Virus record (IMG/VR): IMGVR_UViG_3300005613_000053
Location: 4,156 to 68,155 of that record
Reading direction: 5' to 3' (one strand)
Source: a virus
Length of the DNA stretch: 64,000 bases
How positions within the stretch are numbered: position 1 is the stretch's first letter; the number at the start of each line of letters is the position of its first letter. The position numbers were made by a program, and so were the translations under genes. The notes beneath the pieces were generated by a model that ran no database searches, had not been told where the DNA came from, and saw only the letters and a list, made by a program, of their open reading frames with translations. This document shows, piece after piece, positions 3,312 to 27,255 of this stretch.

Positions 3312-4409
3312 TTACGGAGTAACAAATGCTCCACTACCGTCAGATATAATACACGGAGGCAATGTGGTCGTTCCCGAACACCTACCACCAAGACCCTTAA
3401 CGGAGAAGGACCTGTTTGTAACCGCATCTGCTCCAGTAATACCGTAATCATCACTCTCTACCACAACAGCCGGCAGTTCGATGAAGACATCGTTACTTCC
3501 GTTATTGATAGCAACCCTGAACCAGGTGTTTTCAGCGTACATGTACGGACTTGTCAGCGTACCTGTGCCAGCCGGACCCAGAATCGGGTCAAATACACCC
3601 TGCTCATTGTAAAGAACTACAGTACCGGTAACATCCATCGGACCCTGAAGCAGGGCTGTAGGAAGCCTGTTACCATTACATGTGTAAAGCAGTACGTGGT
3701 TCTGCGTTACATCAACATTCCACTCAACAGTCTCAAGACCAACCTGAGGGACCGCACCACCAGTAAACGGAGCACTGTAAGTACCCGTCAACAGCTGAGC
3801 ATTCGTCCTCCAGAAAGGAATCGGGTCAACGTTATTACCGCTCGGGTTCAACGGATTAGTGTCCGCCAGAACCGTACAATCGCTAGCAATAACACCGAGC
3901 TTCTGGTTGATGTAGCTATAATTTGAATAATCAGTACCACCAGCCGGGTCAACCTCACTCCTGTCCAGAGCTATCGCTCCAGCAGAAACCGTAACGAATG
4001 ACCCCTCTGAAGTAGAGAAGCCTGCGGAAGTATTCCACATTCCGTTCAGGTCGTAGTTTGCCCCATAAGCGCCTGTCGTCCTGTACTGGTACACCCTTGC
4101 GCCGTCAGGCGAGATGTCCACAGACTTCGGGTACGCTCTGTTAGTGATAATCCAGTCCTCCATCAGGTCCCACAGCTGATTACTTGCACCCATCTGAAGC
4201 TCGAAATCAATCGAACCTTCATATCTGATTGCGTTGTCAGCATAGTGAGCCGCACTCGCCGCATTATACCAGCCAGCGCCCCATACAGCACTGGAGTAAA
4301 TCGGCTCCAGAACCAGGTTCACGCTCGAACCGGTAGCCAAAACTACCTGCGGAGTCGTGGCCGGACCTGCAACGTAGAACTTCACGAATCCTTGATATCC
4401 CATTCCCAT
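3312..4409 (-). CDS. Major tail tube-like protein (paralogue 1)
   Basis: MGMGYQGFVK start; strong SD; Gly/Thr-rich beta composition. Confidence 0.6.
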   Translation of the reverse strand: MGMGYQGFVKFYVAGPATTPQVVLATGSSVNLVLEPIYSSAVWGAGWYNAASAAHYADNAIRYEGSIDFELQMGASNQLWDLMEDWIITNRAYPKSVDISPDGARVYQYRTTGAYGANYDLNGMWNTSAGFSTSEGSFVTVSAGAIALDRSEVDPAGGTDYSNYSYINQKLGVIASDCTVLADTNPLNPSGNNVDPIPFWRTNAQLLTGTYSAPFTGGAVPQVGLETVEWNVDVTQNHVLLYTCNGNRLPTALLQGPMDVTGTVVLYNEQGVFDPILGPAGTGTLTSPYMYAENTWFRVAINNGSNDVFIELPAVVVESDDYGITGADAVTNRSFSVKGLGGRCSGTTTLPPCIISDGSGAFVTP

Positions 4410-4441
4410 GACTATTTCCTCCTATCTTACTTGCTTGCCCA

Positions 4442-5239
4442 TTACAACTGAATCTGCCTCTCCTTGAGGTTCTTCACTTTAACCGTATCTCCAACGGTAC
4501 CTGTCGACCCTGCCGGTACAAACCCGGCTCCTATCACGTCCAGGAACCTGTCAGAAGTTCCACCAACATTCACAACAGCTCCCGGGGCCGACCCTCCAGG
4601 TACCGTCACATCAATCGTCGTAGGATTGTCATTAACATCCTTAACCGACAACCTCAAGTCCAGGTCAGTACCGCCCATCGTTACTACCTCAACCTTCAAC
4701 TGGGTAGCAGCAAAATTACTGCCATCCGCCGGATTCGTCACAGCACCGTTGCCGTAATTTATCCCATCAGTAAACTGTACCGACGGTCCTGATACGACCT
4801 CGAGCTCTGCGAACTCGTCGTCCCCTTCAGAGAACACATTGACGGCATGCATATACCTACCAATAACCGCGAAATACAGCTCACCAAAATATTGGCTCAC
4901 CCTCACGTCATTGTCATACAAATATCCGTCCCATCCTCCAACTTGTAAATAATTACCGTTCGCGTCTCTTCTTACAAAATGAGCATCCATGCCACCTATT
5001 ACCCCAGGCAACCTTGTCCCATACTTAGCCGCGAATCCCGGCTCTAAATCATCATCGACCTCTTCGTACACCGGCTCAGTCGGAATCTCAACATCCGGGT
5101 CATCCGTCGCCGTCACAGTATCAAAGTAATAACCCAATCCCTCTTGGCTTATTGCCCCGAAAACCGTCTTCAACTGTCCATACTGGTAAGCTGCTCTATC
5201 AGCCACCCTCAACAGTGTCGCTGTATCAACCAATGGCAT
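4442..5239 (-). CDS. Virion structural protein (hypothetical)
   Basis: Between neck and tail genes; Gly/Val/Thr-rich C-terminal domain. Confidence 0.5.
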   Translation of the reverse strand: MPLVDTATLLRVADRAAYQYGQLKTVFGAISQEGLGYYFDTVTATDDPDVEIPTEPVYEEVDDDLEPGFAAKYGTRLPGVIGGMDAHFVRRDANGNYLQVGGWDGYLYDNDVRVSQYFGELYFAVIGRYMHAVNVFSEGDDEFAELEVVSGPSVQFTDGINYGNGAVTNPADGSNFAATQLKVEVVTMGGTDLDLRLSVKDVNDNPTTIDVTVPGGSAPGAVVNVGGTSDRFLDVIGAGFVPAGSTGTVGDTVKVKNLKERQIQL

Positions 5240-20189: not shown

Positions 20190-21974
20190 TTACACCGAGA
20201 CAGTCCATCCCTCTCTAATCTGGTCCACAGTAGGCAGCGGGTCTCCCTCACCACCCTCAGTACGAGCCAACATCGTGAATACCTTCTCCGAGAATCCCGC
20301 AAGCTGGTTAGTCTGCGAATCCTCATCAACAACGGCATCACCCGACCCGTTCAGGTGAATACAATGAAGCCAGGTCTTCTTAGCCTCCTTAGAAGAGGCA
20401 ACATAAGTCGACCATGTATCACACACAGCCTTTACCTCATCATCATAAGACCTTCCCCAGCCACCCCTACTTCCAGCCATACTGGTGTCATCCCAGCACT
20501 GCATATCCGACAGGATTATCACCCTGTCAGGATAGATACCCTTCTTCTTCAACAGGAGAGGAATCTTCCACGCATTGGTATTATGGCCATTGATACCATT
20601 CTTAGGCATCTTTCCAGCTATACCAAGAACACTCTCATTCTTAGTATAATTGATAACCTTGGTATCAGTAGCGAAACCATACACGTACGGCTTCTCAGCA
20701 GCCTTAGCCACTATTCCACACAGAACACTTGCTGCATCAGCACAACTTACTCTGCTCTTACCAGACACCATCGTCGAAGTCATAGACCCCGAAGCATCTG
20801 CGAACACAGCAGTCACACCAGGCAAATCAATATTCCTACAAGCGAAATCAGCAGCCTGCTCAACAGCACCAGCCAACACATTCCTATGTGCACCATCAAC
20901 ACCAGAGATATCCAGTGACTTCAGCGCACTCAGGAACCTGAATGGAAGCTGCTTAGACCTCTCTACAACCTTCTCATTTGAGATAAAAGCCGCCACCTTA
21001 TCTACATGACTCTCGCTTACCTCCGCCTGAAGAATATTCCTCAGGTTCCTCAGCATAGCCATATAGCCCAGAAGCCTCTCATCAATAAGAAACTCCCATA
21101 CTGCCTTCTTCTCATCCGGGAACTGAGAAAGCAAAACCTCCCAGTTCACCATCGAATCCTTAGCGAGTTTCCTCGCCTTCTCATCGAACTTCGAAAGCTG
21201 CAAAAGCTCCTTCCTGGCAGCGATAATAGGTGTTTTACCTGAGTCAGCCACGTGGCCTGTAATGAAATAATTCGCCACGGCATCGTCCAAAGGCCATCCC
21301 TTCTTACGCTTAATCCAGCAAAGCACATCCTTCCATGAAGGAAACTCAGCTCCCTCATACTTCATAAGACCCCTCTCTCCGAACCTTGAAACCGCATCAC
21401 CCAGGCCCATATCAAGACCATGAGACAGCGACTTCATCCCGAAGAAGAACCTATGAAGCAAGAGCACAGTCTTCACCTCATCAGGACGCTTTATAATACA
21501 AGGTGCATACCTACGTACGAGCGTCTTCGTCGACTCAATCTTTGATGCTATCACCAATATGACCTGCGGAGTAAGACGAATATTCATCTCATTCCTCAGC
21601 CAGTTAGCTATAGCCAGAACATCCTCCGGATTCCCGGAATTAGCCACGTCAACTATCGTCGCCACGACCTCCCTGGCCACATCATTAAGCTCATCACACG
21701 AAGCAAAATCCTTCAGCTTGTCATCAACCAACTGAATCCTCTGGACCAGTTTGCCAAACTTTCCACCGCCTACCCTGCTTGGTATACAGGCATCAGCACT
21801 GTAAAACTTAGGCTCAGCGAAAAATGAACCTCCGGTCATAGTCACCAGCTTGAGAGCCGGGTCATTAACCTCAAAAGCCACTCCACCTGCCCTGTTCACA
21901 GTAGCATTAGGCTGTGAGCTAGGCTTCCTACTAGCCTTCGCCTTCTTCCTTGCCATCTTCTGCATCGTACCCAT
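20190..21974 (-). CDS. rsr: Ro60/Rsr-like TROVE-domain RNA-binding protein with C-terminal vWA domain
   Basis: NRAGGVAF, MAMLRNLRN, SKQLPFRF, DASGSM (MIDAS), ILSDMQ, LAGFSE; AAGGAGG SD before ATG 21974. Confidence 0.92.
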   Translation of the reverse strand: MGTMQKMARKKAKASRKPSSQPNATVNRAGGVAFEVNDPALKLVTMTGGSFFAEPKFYSADACIPSRVGGGKFGKLVQRIQLVDDKLKDFASCDELNDVAREVVATIVDVANSGNPEDVLAIANWLRNEMNIRLTPQVILVIASKIESTKTLVRRYAPCIIKRPDEVKTVLLLHRFFFGMKSLSHGLDMGLGDAVSRFGERGLMKYEGAEFPSWKDVLCWIKRKKGWPLDDAVANYFITGHVADSGKTPIIAARKELLQLSKFDEKARKLAKDSMVNWEVLLSQFPDEKKAVWEFLIDERLLGYMAMLRNLRNILQAEVSESHVDKVAAFISNEKVVERSKQLPFRFLSALKSLDISGVDGAHRNVLAGAVEQAADFACRNIDLPGVTAVFADASGSMTSTMVSGKSRVSCADAASVLCGIVAKAAEKPYVYGFATDTKVINYTKNESVLGIAGKMPKNGINGHNTNAWKIPLLLKKKGIYPDRVIILSDMQCWDDTSMAGSRGGWGRSYDDEVKAVCDTWSTYVASSKEAKKTWLHCIHLNGSGDAVVDEDSQTNQLAGFSEKVFTMLARTEGGEGDPLPTVDQIREGWTVSV

Positions 21975-22052
21975 TCTGCACCTCCTTATTTGAAGCGTAG
22001 CCACACATTGTAGCTACCAATTAATAATCACCGTTTCCACTCAGTCACGGCA

Positions 22053-22085
22053 ATAAAAAAGCCGAATACCCTTAGGTACTCGGCC
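22053..22085 (-). terminator. Intrinsic terminator after the tRNA
   Basis: GCCGAGUACC-UAAG-GGUAUUCGGC followed by U6. Confidence 0.85.
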
Positions 22086-22089
22086 TTCA

Positions 22090-22164
22090 TGGTAGCGGGA
22101 GACGGATTCGAACCGCCGACCTCCAGGTTATGAGCCTAGCGAGCTGCCGCTGCTCCATCCCGCA
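22090..22164 (-). tRNA. tRNA-Met(CAU), initiator-type, CCA encoded
   Basis: UGCGGGAUGGAGCAGCGGCAGCUCG..CUCAUAA..GGUUCGAAUCC..CCCGCUACCA; 1:72 mismatch. Confidence 0.95.
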
Positions 22165-22174
22165 ATCATAAAAA

Positions 22175-22247
22175 GAACCGACACCAATAATCGTCTAAGG
22201 CTTTGTTTCCTATGAAGAAGTATCCCTAGACTGAAGCGTATCAATCC
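22175..22247 (-). ncRNA. Minimal Y RNA-like RNA
   Basis: GGAUUGAUAC/GUGUCGGUUC closing stem; GCUUCA / GAUUAUUG internal loop; GUCUAGGG/CCUUAGAC stem; GAUACUUC motif; next to the TROVE gene. Confidence 0.7.
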
Positions 22248-22254
22248 AAAAAAC

Positions 22255-22350
22255 ATCAGTACCAGTATCAACCTGTCCGTACAAACAAGTCTTGCCAGGT
22301 GTACGCCCGACTGGCCATCGCTTCTGCGACTGTGGCCATCTAGCACCAAC
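22255..22350 (-). ncRNA. Unknown ~95-nt structured RNA
   Basis: 11-bp terminal stem GUUGGUGCUAG/CUGGUACUGAU; two internal arms; U-rich spacers on both sides. Confidence 0.55.
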
Positions 22351-22364
22351 TAAATAATAATAAA

Positions 22365-22690
22365 AAATCTTCAACTCCAATAGTCGCTTGAGGTAACCGG
22401 AGGCGCCTCGGAAGTAGTTAGTTCCGCGCGTGCTCCTTTACAATTCAGTATTACCTGAAAGGTGCTCCCTTTACGCGGTTGCATACGCCCTTGCCATTCC
22501 TGACAGGGAAGTATCTACATAACCCGTAGACGGTCGCCCGAAGGCAATTTGTCATGCTTCAGCACTCTAACCGAAGAGCTCCACACAACGGATTAACGCT
22601 CACAACCGGCCCGCTTTCACGGTCCTGTATAATGCGTTATTACTGTTTTCAGTATAAGAAGTAACCCCTTACTGAAGCGAGTCAAGATTT
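22365..22690 (-). ncRNA. Long (~325 nt) Y RNA-like RNA with a large multi-hairpin insert
   Basis: Same end motifs as 22175..22247 (CGCUUCAGU..GGGUUACUUCUU and CGACUAUUGG); closing stem AAAUCUUGACUC/GAGUUGAAGAUUU. Confidence 0.7.
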
Positions 22691-22741
22691 TTCCATTTCA
22701 AAGAACTATCATAATATACACGCAGTCTCTGGAAAGTTCAA
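22691..22741 (-). promoter_or_regulatory. Sigma70-type promoter plus boxA-like element
   Basis: TTGAAC-17 nt-TATATT, then GTTCTTTGAAATGG. Confidence 0.7.
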
Positions 22742-22751
22742 CAAAAAAGTT

Positions 22752-22994
22752 TCACTTTTTTATTCTGCTATGTACGTACTCTGCAAGACCCCTACCAGTT
22801 AGTGAATTATTTATATCACTTTCCGGTATTCTCAGACCCATATCATCTTCCAGGTCCATTGCCAATTCCACCGCAGTCATCTCGTCCAATCCGAGAGAAT
22901 TAAGTCCGGCTTCCATATCTACTACTTTAGGCTCCATATTCAGAACATAAGCAATAACATCTCTCACCGCCCCAAATACCTCGTCCGCACTCAT
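22752..22994 (-). CDS. Acyl carrier protein-like protein lacking the phosphopantetheine Ser (LGLDEM)
   Basis: 80 aa acidic; VRDVIA..LGLD[E]..VELAMDLED..GLRIP..T...Y matches the ACP pattern. Confidence 0.8.
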   Translation of the reverse strand: MSADEVFGAVRDVIAYVLNMEPKVVDMEAGLNSLGLDEMTAVELAMDLEDDMGLRIPESDINNSLTGRGLAEYVHSRIKK

Positions 22995-23003
22995 ACGACC
23001 TCC

Positions 23004-23936
23004 TGGTTAGTGTGAAAGAGCAGTTACCCAACATGGGTACACTAAGTTGCAGTCCGCAACCTCTGCTCCAGTAAAAGCCCCTCCAGGGCAAAAAGATACG
23101 ATGACGGAGCGACGGAGGAGTCTACATCCTCTTGCCTTTGTTTCCCTCGCTCCTTTCCCTTTCGGGCGCGTTGTCGCGGTTCGGCGTCCGCTTTGGAGTA
23201 GATTATTCCCCGTCATCGAATTGATGGAGTGTATGGGAATCACCCTTCTGCCATCCTTGTTACCGCCTTACAAAATCTAATAAGTTCACCATCAGTATGA
23301 GAATTCCTTGCATAATTCGCTATAACAGCAATGAACCTAACATTACCTTTTACATAACCCTTACTACTATCTATACGGTCTAAACTAGCCCTATGAGACC
23401 ATTCACATTCAGGCCACTTACCCGTCGTACTTATAGGCAACTCCAACTCCCACCCAGTCAAAGGACACAAACCCTCTTGCTTGTCCCATATAAATTTTAA
23501 ATCCTCTAAAGTTAAATCAACCTCTTTATTCCCACGTCTACCTATTGCTCTCAGCAAGAACCAACGGAATGGTGTATACTCATCCCGCCTATTTTTAGAA
23601 CATAGACCCAAATGCCAATAACCCTCAGAAGGTGTATCTATATGCCTCCTTTTACTAGAACAAGATAAACTACAAAAGTGACGCTGGCCTTTCCTTTCGC
23701 TTCTACTATACTCAGAAAAAGTCTTTTGGAACTCTTTTTTACACTGGAAACACTCAACACTAACCATCTTCCTCATGATACCCTCCTCATCATTAAGAAA
23801 GATATTAGATAATTATTGGAGCAATGGTATTGTTTCATTCCGAATACCATCTTTCCACTCAGTCAACACCCCTTGATAAGATAACTCGCCTACTCAACTA
23901 AAGGTACCCGTGCACAGGCTCCTTCAGCCCCAACCA
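23004..23936 (-). ncRNA. Large unknown structured RNA interrupted by an HNH ORF
   Basis: Nested pairings across the ORF: UGGUUGG/CUAACCA, UGAAGGAGC/GCUCUUUCA, GGGUAC/GUACCC, AGUUG/CAACU, UGCUCCA/UGGAGCA; internal GAUGACGGGG/CUCCGUCAUC. Confidence 0.55.
23240..23776 (-). CDS. HNH/His-Me finger endonuclease with N-terminal Zn finger
   Basis: CFQC..FCSLSC; LCPLTG..SLDRIDSSKGYVKGNV..AN. Confidence 0.85.
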   Translation of the reverse strand: MRKMVSVECFQCKKEFQKTFSEYSRSERKGQRHFCSLSCSSKRRHIDTPSEGYWHLGLCSKNRRDEYTPFRWFLLRAIGRRGNKEVDLTLEDLKFIWDKQEGLCPLTGWELELPISTTGKWPECEWSHRASLDRIDSSKGYVKGNVRFIAVIANYARNSHTDGELIRFCKAVTRMAEG

Positions 23937-23961
23937 TCCTTAAACCTCAACGAGTTAAAAT

Positions 23962-24330
23962 TGGTGGACGTGGGGAGATTTGAACTCCCGTCCTGAACGG
24001 GCTTACCATATGCCTCTACGTGTGTATCTGAATTTACAGTAATCAGAAACTGTTTGTCCGTCTTCCCGAACTGCCATCCCGTCTTTCCGGACTGTCAATG
24101 GTCTTACCCGATTGTCAGAGCTGTCTGTTAGACCTCAAGGCTTACTTGCTCACGCTCGCCTGTTTTGGCTCGGTTGCTTACGCAGCAGCGAGAGCCGGAG
24201 CTCTCTCTGCACCGAAAAGATTGATAACGTTGCCGTTTATCAGTTTGTACCAGATGATTTACGAGGCCAACTGGAATCCTCGACACGCAGCGTATGACTT
24301 GCATCCGACAGTCGAATCCTTGTCACGCCC
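23962..24330 (-). ncRNA. ssrA: tmRNA, tag (A)GNVINLFGAERAPALAAA
   Basis: 5' GGGCGUGACAAGGAUUCGAC; G3-U70 pair; pk1; resume context AUAAAC-GGC; tag ends LAAA*; 3' GUUCAAAUC..UCCACCA. Confidence 0.95.
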
Positions 24331-24339
24331 AAAATTAGG

Positions 24340-24577
24340 CCTGCCTCTCCCCTTTCGGAGGTTTGTGCTCCACGATACATCTTGCGGTCCGGTTTTTCCC
24401 TCGCGGTACTTTGCCGTGTCCGCCTGACCACCAACGCGCAGGCGACGTTGGGGCTTCAAAGCATGGGGACGAATGGTTTCCCTTGCCGGTACTCACACCC
24501 ATCAACTCCACCACCCAGGTCTGGCCCGTTACCTTCCTTCTGCTTGACTACCTGGGACACAGAAGACTTTAGGCAAA
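24340..24577 (-). ncRNA. Unknown ~240-nt RNA with two pseudoknots and two loop-E/GNRA hairpins
   Basis: Closing UUUGCCU/AGGCAGG; CUUCUG/CAGAAG crossed with CCCAGGU/ACCUGGG; CCAACG/CGUUGG crossed with CGCCUG/CAGGCG; AGUACC-GGCAA/GCGA-GGGAAA twice. Confidence 0.6.
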
Positions 24578-26187: not shown

Positions 26188-27255
26188 TTATTTCAAAGCC
26201 ATCTTTGTATACTTCTTACACAATTTGATAGTAGCCTCAATATCCTTAGGACTACAAGTCTCTATTGCTGTATGAACATTCCTGACCGGCACCAGAACCA
26301 ACCCAGTTCTTATACCCCTGGCATTTATAAAACCATTGTCAGTATCAAATCTGGAAAGCTCAATCTGATATGGCATATTATTCTTTTCACAAGCAGACTC
26401 CAAGGCCATAAATACATCGTCACTTATACCAAGCCCTCGCCCTATCGCTGGTCCATCATCGAGTCTACACTTGCCATGCTTTTTATACACCTCATATTCA
26501 GCATCATATACAATAGTGTCAGTGGCTGGAAGCACATCTATTGTTATCGAAATATCTGGTTGAGCACTCTTGGCCGTTAATCCGGAAGCTCCTGTACTCC
26601 CCTCTTCTCCTGCGGTTGCTGCCAGTATAACTGTAGGCACTTTGCCACTGCGCAAACTATGAACATATTTACCAATCTCATAAAGGACATAAGCTCCGAG
26701 TCTATCGTCAAGATGAGTAGCCGATATCCTGTCACCGAGCTTGACGAATCTATGCTTCAAAGAAACATAATCCCCTACAGACACAACCCTTTTAGTCTGA
26801 CTCTCACCCTTTGAACCTATGTCTATAGCAATTTCATATCGCTCTTGAAGTATCTCATCATCAGTTCCCTCATCAACCAAATGATAGGGTATAACAGGCA
26901 TGAATTGACCACTGATAGTCTTTCCAGACTTCCTTGAGTAAATTACAACATCAGTCCCAGGCAACATCCTGGGGTCTGCCATTTCATATCCCGTAATATC
27001 TTGCGTAAAAACAAAACCCTGGTCGTCTATGTACTTAACCATAAAACCTATCGTATCCATATGGGCCGTAAACATTATCCTTTTATCAGACCCCCTGCCA
27101 GGAATTTCAGTATAGTGATTTCCTACCCCATCTTTATACTGCTTAACCCTCTCACTGTACTTAGTTAATTTATGGAAGACATCCATAGCTTGACTCTCAT
27201 CCCCAGCAACACCACCAACAGATGTAAGCTCCTCTAATTTTGTCAAGTCAATCAT
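26188..27255 (-). CDS. M42-family (TET-like) metallo-aminopeptidase
   Basis: AHMDTIG, LDDRLG, GEEG, IDV, VHT metal-ligand motifs. Confidence 0.88.
   Translation of the reverse strand: MIDLTKLEELTSVGGVAGDESQAMDVFHKLTKYSERVKQYKDGVGNHYTEIPGRGSDKRIMFTAHMDTIGFMVKYIDDQGFVFTQDITGYEMADPRMLPGTDVVIYSRKSGKTISGQFMPVIPYHLVDEGTDDEILQERYEIAIDIGSKGESQTKRVVSVGDYVSLKHRFVKLGDRISATHLDDRLGAYVLYEIGKYVHSLRSGKVPTVILAATAGEEGSTGASGLTAKSAQPDISITIDVLPATDTIVYDAEYEVYKKHGKCRLDDGPAIGRGLGISDDVFMALESACEKNNMPYQIELSRFDTDNGFINARGIRTGLVLVPVRNVHTAIETCSPKDIEATIKLCKKYTKMALK

Follow-up and report, generated by a model that had tools for sequence, protein, structure and literature searches.

What kind of RNA is the large structured element upstream of a Ro60-like gene in this phage, and does it belong with that gene? 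The window, the whole 64,000-nucleotide stretch analysed here, comes from a viral record with an estimated completeness of 29%, and the phage is therefore probably a large one. The original prediction placed in it a giant Y-like RNA with a multi-hairpin domain instead of a tRNA-like one. Y RNAs are thought to act as Ro60 tethers and gates. To our knowledge, few of their effector modules are known and their bacterial partners are largely unidentified. Comparison of sequences and predicted folds makes us fairly confident that the element is a stable noncoding RNA of the Y-RNA kind in a phage encoding its own Ro60, with a putative Ro-bound end module and a putative effector interior.

Y RNAs have been sought on the same strand as a Ro60/TROVE gene and within 4 kb of it (Chen 2014, PMC4201824), and the characterised ones are 80–130 nt long (PMC4201824). 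Here the unit lies entirely on the minus strand and runs 5′ to 3′ from an acyl-carrier-protein (ACP)-like ORF through a promoter, the large element, a 110-nt spacer, a 73-nt element, a tRNA-Met and a terminator-like hairpin to the TROVE/Ro60 ORF. Most relatives fetched by Ro homology have the layout of a promoter, one or more Y-like RNAs, usually a tRNA-Met and then Ro.

The TROVE/Ro60-like gene (20190..21974, minus strand) encodes 594 aa from an ATG at 21974 preceded by AAGGAGG, and starts about 390 nt downstream of the large RNA on the same strand. It matches Pfam TROVE at 4.6e-22, PHROG 850 'RNA-binding protein' at 2.5e-30 and RO60 at 3e-4. Its closest solved relative is the TROVE protein of Thermus phage phiLo (PDB 9L5Y/9KOP, E 2e-9). 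The relatives that tblastn found with this Ro among phage records were all less than 32% identical, and blastn of the locus against 50,697 phage records matched the tRNA-Met part alone.

Upstream of the large element is a sigma-70-like promoter, TTGAAC - 17 nt - TATATT (22713..22741, minus strand), a consensus match only, and relatives have equivalent promoters in the same place. The word GTTCTTTGAAA is exact at the inferred transcript start (22696..22706, minus strand). It also follows the −10 box in L087, L092, L076, L096 and L102, and with a one-letter change in L077. Likewise, L080 has this word or a one-letter variant directly after its −10 box, and in L087 the word recurs between RNA1 and RNA2.

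By pairing, the large RNA spans about 331 nt between the outer ends of the two S1 strands (22362..22693, minus strand), within about 3 nt of the originally proposed 22365..22690. The S1 5′ strand GAAAAAUCUUGACUC (22679..22693) pairs with 22377-22362 in 15 bp with one bulge. The S1 3′ strand, assigned by the fold (22362..22377), leads into a U-rich run, and a U run follows S1 in most homologues too. The inner 5 bp of S1 covary among the homologues of the big RNA (GACTC/GAGTT, GGTTC/GAATC and GATAC/GTATC).

Inside S1 is an internal loop with GCUUCA (22673..22678) on its 5′ strand and GACUAUUG (22378..22385) on its 3′ strand. The second helix, S2, pairs GUAAGGGG (22665..22672) with CCUCAAGC (22386..22393) and is followed by the junction motif UUACUUC (22658..22664), all on the minus strand. 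S2 is paired at 6/8 positions in the big RNA, with a tandem A.A (two A.A mismatches), and at 8/8 in the small Y-like RNA, which has the same end module and a minimal apical loop (73 nt, 22175..22247, minus strand).

The end motifs of the two elements had been said to match, and they do. The 64-kb window has exactly two copies of the pattern CGCTTCAGTNNNGGGNTACTTCTT, the 24-nt 5′ motif (22656-22679 and 22215-22238), against none in 100 dinucleotide shuffles. The 3′ motifs are CGACTATTG at 22386-22378 in the large element and CGATTATTG at 22193-22185 in the 73-nt one.

Relatives were collected from IMG/VR by Ro homology (8 loci, Ro 47–58% identical), from metagenomes by Ro homology (29 loci, one being the same phage) and from IMG/VR by the 5′ motif (61 loci). 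A script gave 65 candidate elements. Of these, the 38 non-identical ones with a paired S1 and a GAYUNUYG-type 3′ loop were kept (61–315 nt), and the remaining candidates were dropped as probable chance pairings.

All of them have the same module: S1, an asymmetric internal loop (5′ GCUUCA, 3′ GAYUAUUG), an 8-bp S2 and then (U/A)UACUUC. It is common to the large element, its 73-nt neighbour and 36 other phage elements, which bears out the proposed modular build, with a TROVE/Ro60 gene downstream on the same strand. S1 is paired in 100% of cases and the motifs are conserved, partly by construction because S1 pairing and the 3′ loop were selection criteria. The 5′ loop strand reads (N)CUUCA in 35/38 elements and is a one-letter variant in the other 3, (U/A)UACUUC is present in 38/38, both words being part of the search pattern, and the 3′ strand varies around GAYU(A/U)UYG.

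S2 gives the comparative support. Over the 38 elements, canonical pairs make up 93.4% of it, whereas 1000 shuffles of the partners give 72.1% (sd 1.8, maximum 78.9). Its positions 2–5 each show 4–6 standard pair types.

Between the constant ends, the interiors take minimal, tRNA-like, GGAAGAC-hairpin and complex forms, and a T-loop motif is found in 12/40 elements. In a jumbo-phage tRNA array (L046 1414-1555), the window-type ends enclose a core matching Rfam YrlA positions 24–84 (33.9 bits, E 9e-6). Since some relatives have a YrlA-type core between the same ends, a different domain of about 260 nt occupies that position in the window, as proposed. More generally, the same ends enclose other interiors in distant relatives; therefore the scaffold is constant and the cargo swapped.

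Neither ARAGORN nor the Rfam tRNA model calls anything in the big RNA, and it has no T-loop motif, in keeping with the originally noted lack of a T-arm. The YrlA covariance model, which had been expected to hit the termini, failed to do so: RF02553 (gathering score 69 bits) has no match at E≤10 in 21900-24500, termini included. Even the termini escape it, their module being unlike the canonical GNCGAA-type site.

The published Ro-contact motifs on the 5′ strand of Y RNAs are GGUCCGA or GNCGAAN0-1G, the latter that of YrlA (PMC4201824), and in YrlA the stem of the Ro module is followed by a conserved YUAY (PMC4201824; 10.1101/312249). Here the 5′ strand GCUUCA is neither of these motifs and a CGA word is on the 3′ strand instead. 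UUAC directly after S2 (22664-22661) agrees with YUAY, its word being part of the search pattern. Judged from these sequences, the end module takes the place of the YrlA Ro-binding module, yet differs from it.

Elements with the same module are also interspersed in phage tRNA arrays (L046 1255-1555, L063 3791-4313 and L069 7224-7863). Some are minimal, and others have a YrlA-type permuted tRNA-like core scoring below the Rfam gathering threshold. On actinophage loci the YrlA model likewise scores below its gathering score, at 44.1 bits in L104 and 33.8 bits in L105. In L105, which is Streptomyces phage Alone3, a manA RNA match of 47.8 bits (gathering score 55.2) lies at 4389-4621, between tRNA genes near Ro.

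Three relatives whose Ro is 56–58% identical have a first Y-like RNA of 192–217 nt (L001 2931-3127, L003 3509-3725 and L004 3484-3675). A row of four or five short hairpins makes up its interior, their loops being GGAAGA, CAAAGA or GAAAGA. As far as the sequences tell, such a row is a different putative effector domain on the same scaffold. In L088 and L093 (2200-2470 in each), Ro is directly preceded by a tandem of three small Y-like RNAs, and no tRNA gene intervenes. The second Y-like RNA of L080 is followed (~735-815) by a sequence resembling tRNA-Met, which ARAGORN does not call and whose D-arm region is aberrant.

The interior domain of the large element (22394..22657, minus strand, ~264 nt) has about 9 hairpin tips by its fold and by homologous domains. 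All the hairpins originally listed are present, namely UACUG/CAGUA, CCGU/GCGG, UUGCC/GGCGA, GUCUAC/GUAGAU, UUCAG/CUGAA and CGGAA/UUCCG. Six relatives (L102, L087, L096, L076, L077 and L092) have homologous interiors of 245–292 nt and L080 has a 232-nt variant. The Ro proteins of the phages with the homologous large interior are 62–73% identical.

A rival thought is that no single functional RNA exists here, the hairpins being due to chance or the element being a degenerate duplicate of the small RNA with an inserted mobile sequence or intron. The folding energy leaves some room for it, as the 336-nt stretch folds at −110.8 kcal/mol with a modest z-score of −2.86 (1/100 shuffles as stable). Moreover, S2 is imperfect in the window, and a 46-nt hairpin, UAACGC...GCGUUA with the tip CCGU-GAAA-GCGG (22594..22639, minus strand, by predicted fold), is window-specific, being absent from the seven homologues in a MAFFT alignment.

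The interior helices nevertheless covary among the phages with 62–73% identical Ro. P4, an internal loop and hairpin P5 lie at 22551..22589 (minus strand). In alignment A1 (7 sequences, 13 pairs) they are 91.2% paired against 68.7% when shuffled, with 0/500 shuffles as high; 10/13 pairs have changed on both sides, and slid controls give 34–47%. The P9 hairpin, UUCAG-GUAAUA-CUGAA (22444..22459, minus strand), is 97.5% paired in alignment A2 (8 sequences, 5 pairs) against 64.3% when shuffled, and 4/5 pairs have changed on both sides. The covariation for which a test in homologues had been suggested is thus found in these helices.

Additionally, a covariance model of P4, P5, the base of P6 and P7, named R1, was built from 5 homologues with the window excluded. 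It matches the window once, at 22511..22591 (minus strand), over its full length with 54.5 bits and E 1.7e-10, the E-value calibration being rough. Over 100 loci (761,780 bases), R1 finds just its 5 training sequences and L092, which was outside the training set (42.4 bits). P6, P7 and P10 stand at equivalent positions with differing sequences, by eye and by script; as plain MAFFT aligns neither the interior nor the P7 block (A3) correctly, they are listed by script only, and the formal pair counts cover P4, P5 and P9.

Rfam 15 (cmscan, E≤10, 21900-24500) lists nothing inside 22362-22693, and no existing family claims the RNA. No match was obtained at E≤10 in 21900-24500 for ROOL, GOLLD, group I/II introns, RNase P, 6S or cis-regulatory families. 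The independent R1 match and the P4/P5 and P9 covariation largely refute the chance or degenerate origin, against which the lack of intron, ROOL and GOLLD matches also speaks and which we regard as extremely unlikely. Within the reach of 7–8 related sequences, comparison shows the interior to be a conserved, covarying domain with a predicted fold. A fold constrained to the helices with comparative support is just 1 kcal/mol less stable (−109.8 kcal/mol).

The internal loop between P4 and P5 looks K-turn-like, with GGA on its 5′ strand and GCUGAA on its 3′ strand. GGA and, opposite to it, NGNUGAR are kept in 7/7 sequences. A K-turn has a three-nucleotide bulge and then tandem G.A/A.G pairs between two helices, and the loop presumably fits this consensus. 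The P9 loop is GUAAUA or GUAAGA in 6/8 sequences.

Several other ideas on the interior were dropped. One, that the GUAAUA hairpin mimics a domain of rRNA, came from a resemblance only. Another, that UACUUC pairs with a purine-rich word downstream, is inconsistent among the homologues. A coding-peptide reading was set aside as no ORF of ≥60 aa is present within 22365-22690. A search for more homologues of the big RNA with the pattern CTTCAGNNNNGGGNTACTTCN{2,4}ACTGAAA gave 0 in IMG/VR and 0 in GTDB genomes.

Could the element instead act only in cis, as a riboswitch- or attenuator-like leader governing readthrough into the small RNA, the tRNA-Met and Ro? This role would suit its place toward the 5′ end of the inferred transcription unit and the U run after S1, and complex riboswitches are likewise large, conserved and structured. 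However, the same module frames elements of 61–163 nt in tRNA arrays without a downstream gene to control. The interiors are swapped while the ends stay constant, and no cis-regulatory family of Rfam matches. We therefore take a cis-acting leader as very unlikely and keep to a free-standing Y-like RNA.

A pointer to Ro as the partner comes from the Ro mRNA itself. Just 5′ of the ribosome-binding site, its leader has the element AAUUG-[GUAGCUACA..UGUGGCUAC]-GCUUCA (21991..22022, minus strand). There a loop caps S1 and both strands of the internal loop flank it, making a circularly permuted copy of the end module. A looser definition had a background of 24.5% and was uninformative, so the strict one was used. 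Strictly defined, the mimic is present in 18/27 Ro leaders, in 16 distinct covarying sequences, and absent from the other 9, against 0/919 random segments of the same loci.

Besides the window, the mimic is seen in L001, L003, L004, L005, L076-L078, L081-L084, L087, L092, L096, L097, L101 and L103. In one jumbo phage, a single case, the leader and the Y-like RNAs alike have UUUG where the window's clade has AUUG. Operators of the ribosomal-protein type in mRNAs mimic the main RNA target of their RNA-binding protein. Similarly, the Ro leader has the helix and the flanking loop strands of the Y-like RNAs next to its ribosome-binding site. The simplest reading is a candidate autoregulatory operator of Ro, and we infer from the mimic that Ro is the ligand of the module.

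The module might still be recognised by a factor other than Ro, such as a host or phage RNase that excises the RNAs from a polycistronic precursor, in which case the RNA family would be real and Ro a mere neighbor. The 5′ loop is unlike the published Ro-binding motifs. The elements stand in tandem with a tRNA. In jumbo phages they are embedded in tRNA arrays, and signals for processing are to be expected in such arrays. The leader copy might just as well be the place of a cut that frees the Ro mRNA.

Against this, the invariant gene partner is Ro, and, like autoregulatory operators, the leader copy lies immediately beside the ribosome-binding site. The order of 5′ motif, stem and (U/A)UAC parallels that of the YrlA Ro-binding module and YUAY. 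Furthermore, the conserved loops together with S2 and UACUUC exceed the needs of a simple cleavage signal. Recognition by a non-Ro factor thus appears unlikely, and binding by Ro is the reading that we carry further.

The linkage was also followed outward from the motif. TROVE is present in 3/5 other motif-bearing contigs, and the 2 without it are fragments that are 7–9% complete. In GTDB, at least 120 loci match the 5′ pattern, and among the matches listed a Ro homologue is present in L151 alone (tblastn 6e-176), which also bears a clean 66-nt module. The other 119 among the matches listed, with no Ro nearby, were rejected as chance or coding matches by their look. At the Ro loci of L085 and L081, no Y-like RNA was seen nearby.

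Mechanistically, the large RNA would probably be co-transcribed with the small Y-like RNA and the tRNA-Met from the promoter at 22741-22713. A search of sequencing runs turned up no RNA run that contains the sequence, and the 11 runs that it did turn up have only about 4% of the words. The tRNA-Met (CAU) lies 10 nt past the small RNA (22090..22164, minus strand; ARAGORN; Rfam 58.4 bits). In most relatives a tRNA-Met is directly 3′ of the last Y-like RNA, so RNase P, cutting at the tRNA 5′ end, may set the 3′ side of that RNA. The 3′ ends consisting of a stem and a U run would be trimmed or terminated. The terminator-like hairpin, GCCGAGUACC-UAAG-GGUAUUCGGC with U6 (22055..22084, minus strand), was read from the sequence and is absent from the consensus-scan list.

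The phage Ro60 would then bind the S1 and internal-loop module, and the interior would be the effector part that brings a partner or substrate to Ro. If Ro binds the leader copy, translation of Ro would be held down by the free protein, and titration of Ro by the Y-like RNAs would lift that repression.

A wider reading is offered tentatively, at slightly less than even odds. These RNAs may form an undescribed clade of phage Y RNAs, whose new Ro-recognition module (S1 plus the GCUUCA/GAYUAUUG loop) would be a plug-in scaffold for interchangeable effector domains, be they minimal, tRNA-like, arrays of GGAAGA-loop hairpins or a K-turn-containing fold of 230–290 nt. The large domain would fold independently and recruit or mimic a host component of RNA processing or translation for the phage Ro, and Ro would set its own level through the operator copy on its mRNA.

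Y RNAs are modular, and in known cases the second module links Ro to an effector, PNPase and ZBP1 being examples (10.1101/312249, Wang et al. 2018). YrlA (RF02553) resembles the window RNA in adjoining a same-strand Ro60/TROVE gene and in its modular build of paired ends, loop motif, stem and then (U/A)UAC. However, its model has 114 positions against about 331 nt here, where no T or D arm is found and the putative effector part is multi-branched with ~264 nt. The metazoan Y RNAs and Deinococcus radiodurans Yrn1 also have a terminal stem with a presumed Ro site and a second module, but theirs is a loop or a few stem-loops, and the GGUCCGA-type site is absent here.

The small Y-like RNAs Yrl1 and Yrl2 of phage phiLo, chosen by a CGAA motif in a bulge (PMC12135203), are similar as phage Y-like RNAs that lie upstream of a phage Ro60 and are built of stem, internal bulge and stem. 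In contrast to the window RNA, they are not described as having a large folded domain (PMC12135203).

ROOL and GOLLD are comparable as large structured phage RNAs adjoining tRNA and tmRNA genes, but the window RNA is smaller and, at E≤10, matches neither in Rfam. We know of no Ro-linked end module in ROOL or GOLLD. Our literature search, with some reviews and the Chen 2014 supplements (phage YrlA candidates) outside its scope, found no large Y RNA, no such module and no Ro60 operator.

To the study of Y RNAs, this locus offers a much larger, conserved and covarying candidate effector domain, a distinct candidate Ro-recognition motif common to dozens of phage RNAs and, on the Ro mRNA, a candidate autoregulatory operator. 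Taken jointly, the three allow testing of what the phage Ro ribonucleoprotein does during infection. The range of Y RNA size and architecture would grow about threefold. With the end-module consensus, one can look for Y RNAs missed by the Rfam YrlA model.

The spacer between the two Y-like RNAs may itself be an RNA. At 22255-22350 (minus strand), an 11-bp closing stem and three hairpins are predicted to fold at −40.2 kcal/mol (z −3.48, 1/200 shuffles as stable). It may be a third small RNA specific to the window, because the spacers of the relatives have only ~15–50 nt.

As to the tRNA-Met, its 1:72 pair is non-standard in the Rfam alignment, and its identity to the tRNA-Met genes of E. coli is about 82% (median 4 places per genome). 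Its sequence suggests a tRNA of the initiator type.

The neighbourhood upstream of the unit has other recurrent members. A phage tmRNA lies there in the window (23962-24330, minus strand, 116 bits) and in relatives (L004 2994-3405, L005 3117-3524, L084 303-732 and L092 212-585), making a recurring cluster of tmRNA, Y-like RNAs, tRNA-Met and Ro. The ACP-like ORF (22752-22994) has a PP-binding match at 1.1e-8. Farther upstream are an HNH/endonuclease VII-like ORF (23240-23776; PHROG 3322, 1.7e-17) and an M42 peptidase ORF (26188-27255; 1.5e-51), all three on the minus strand.
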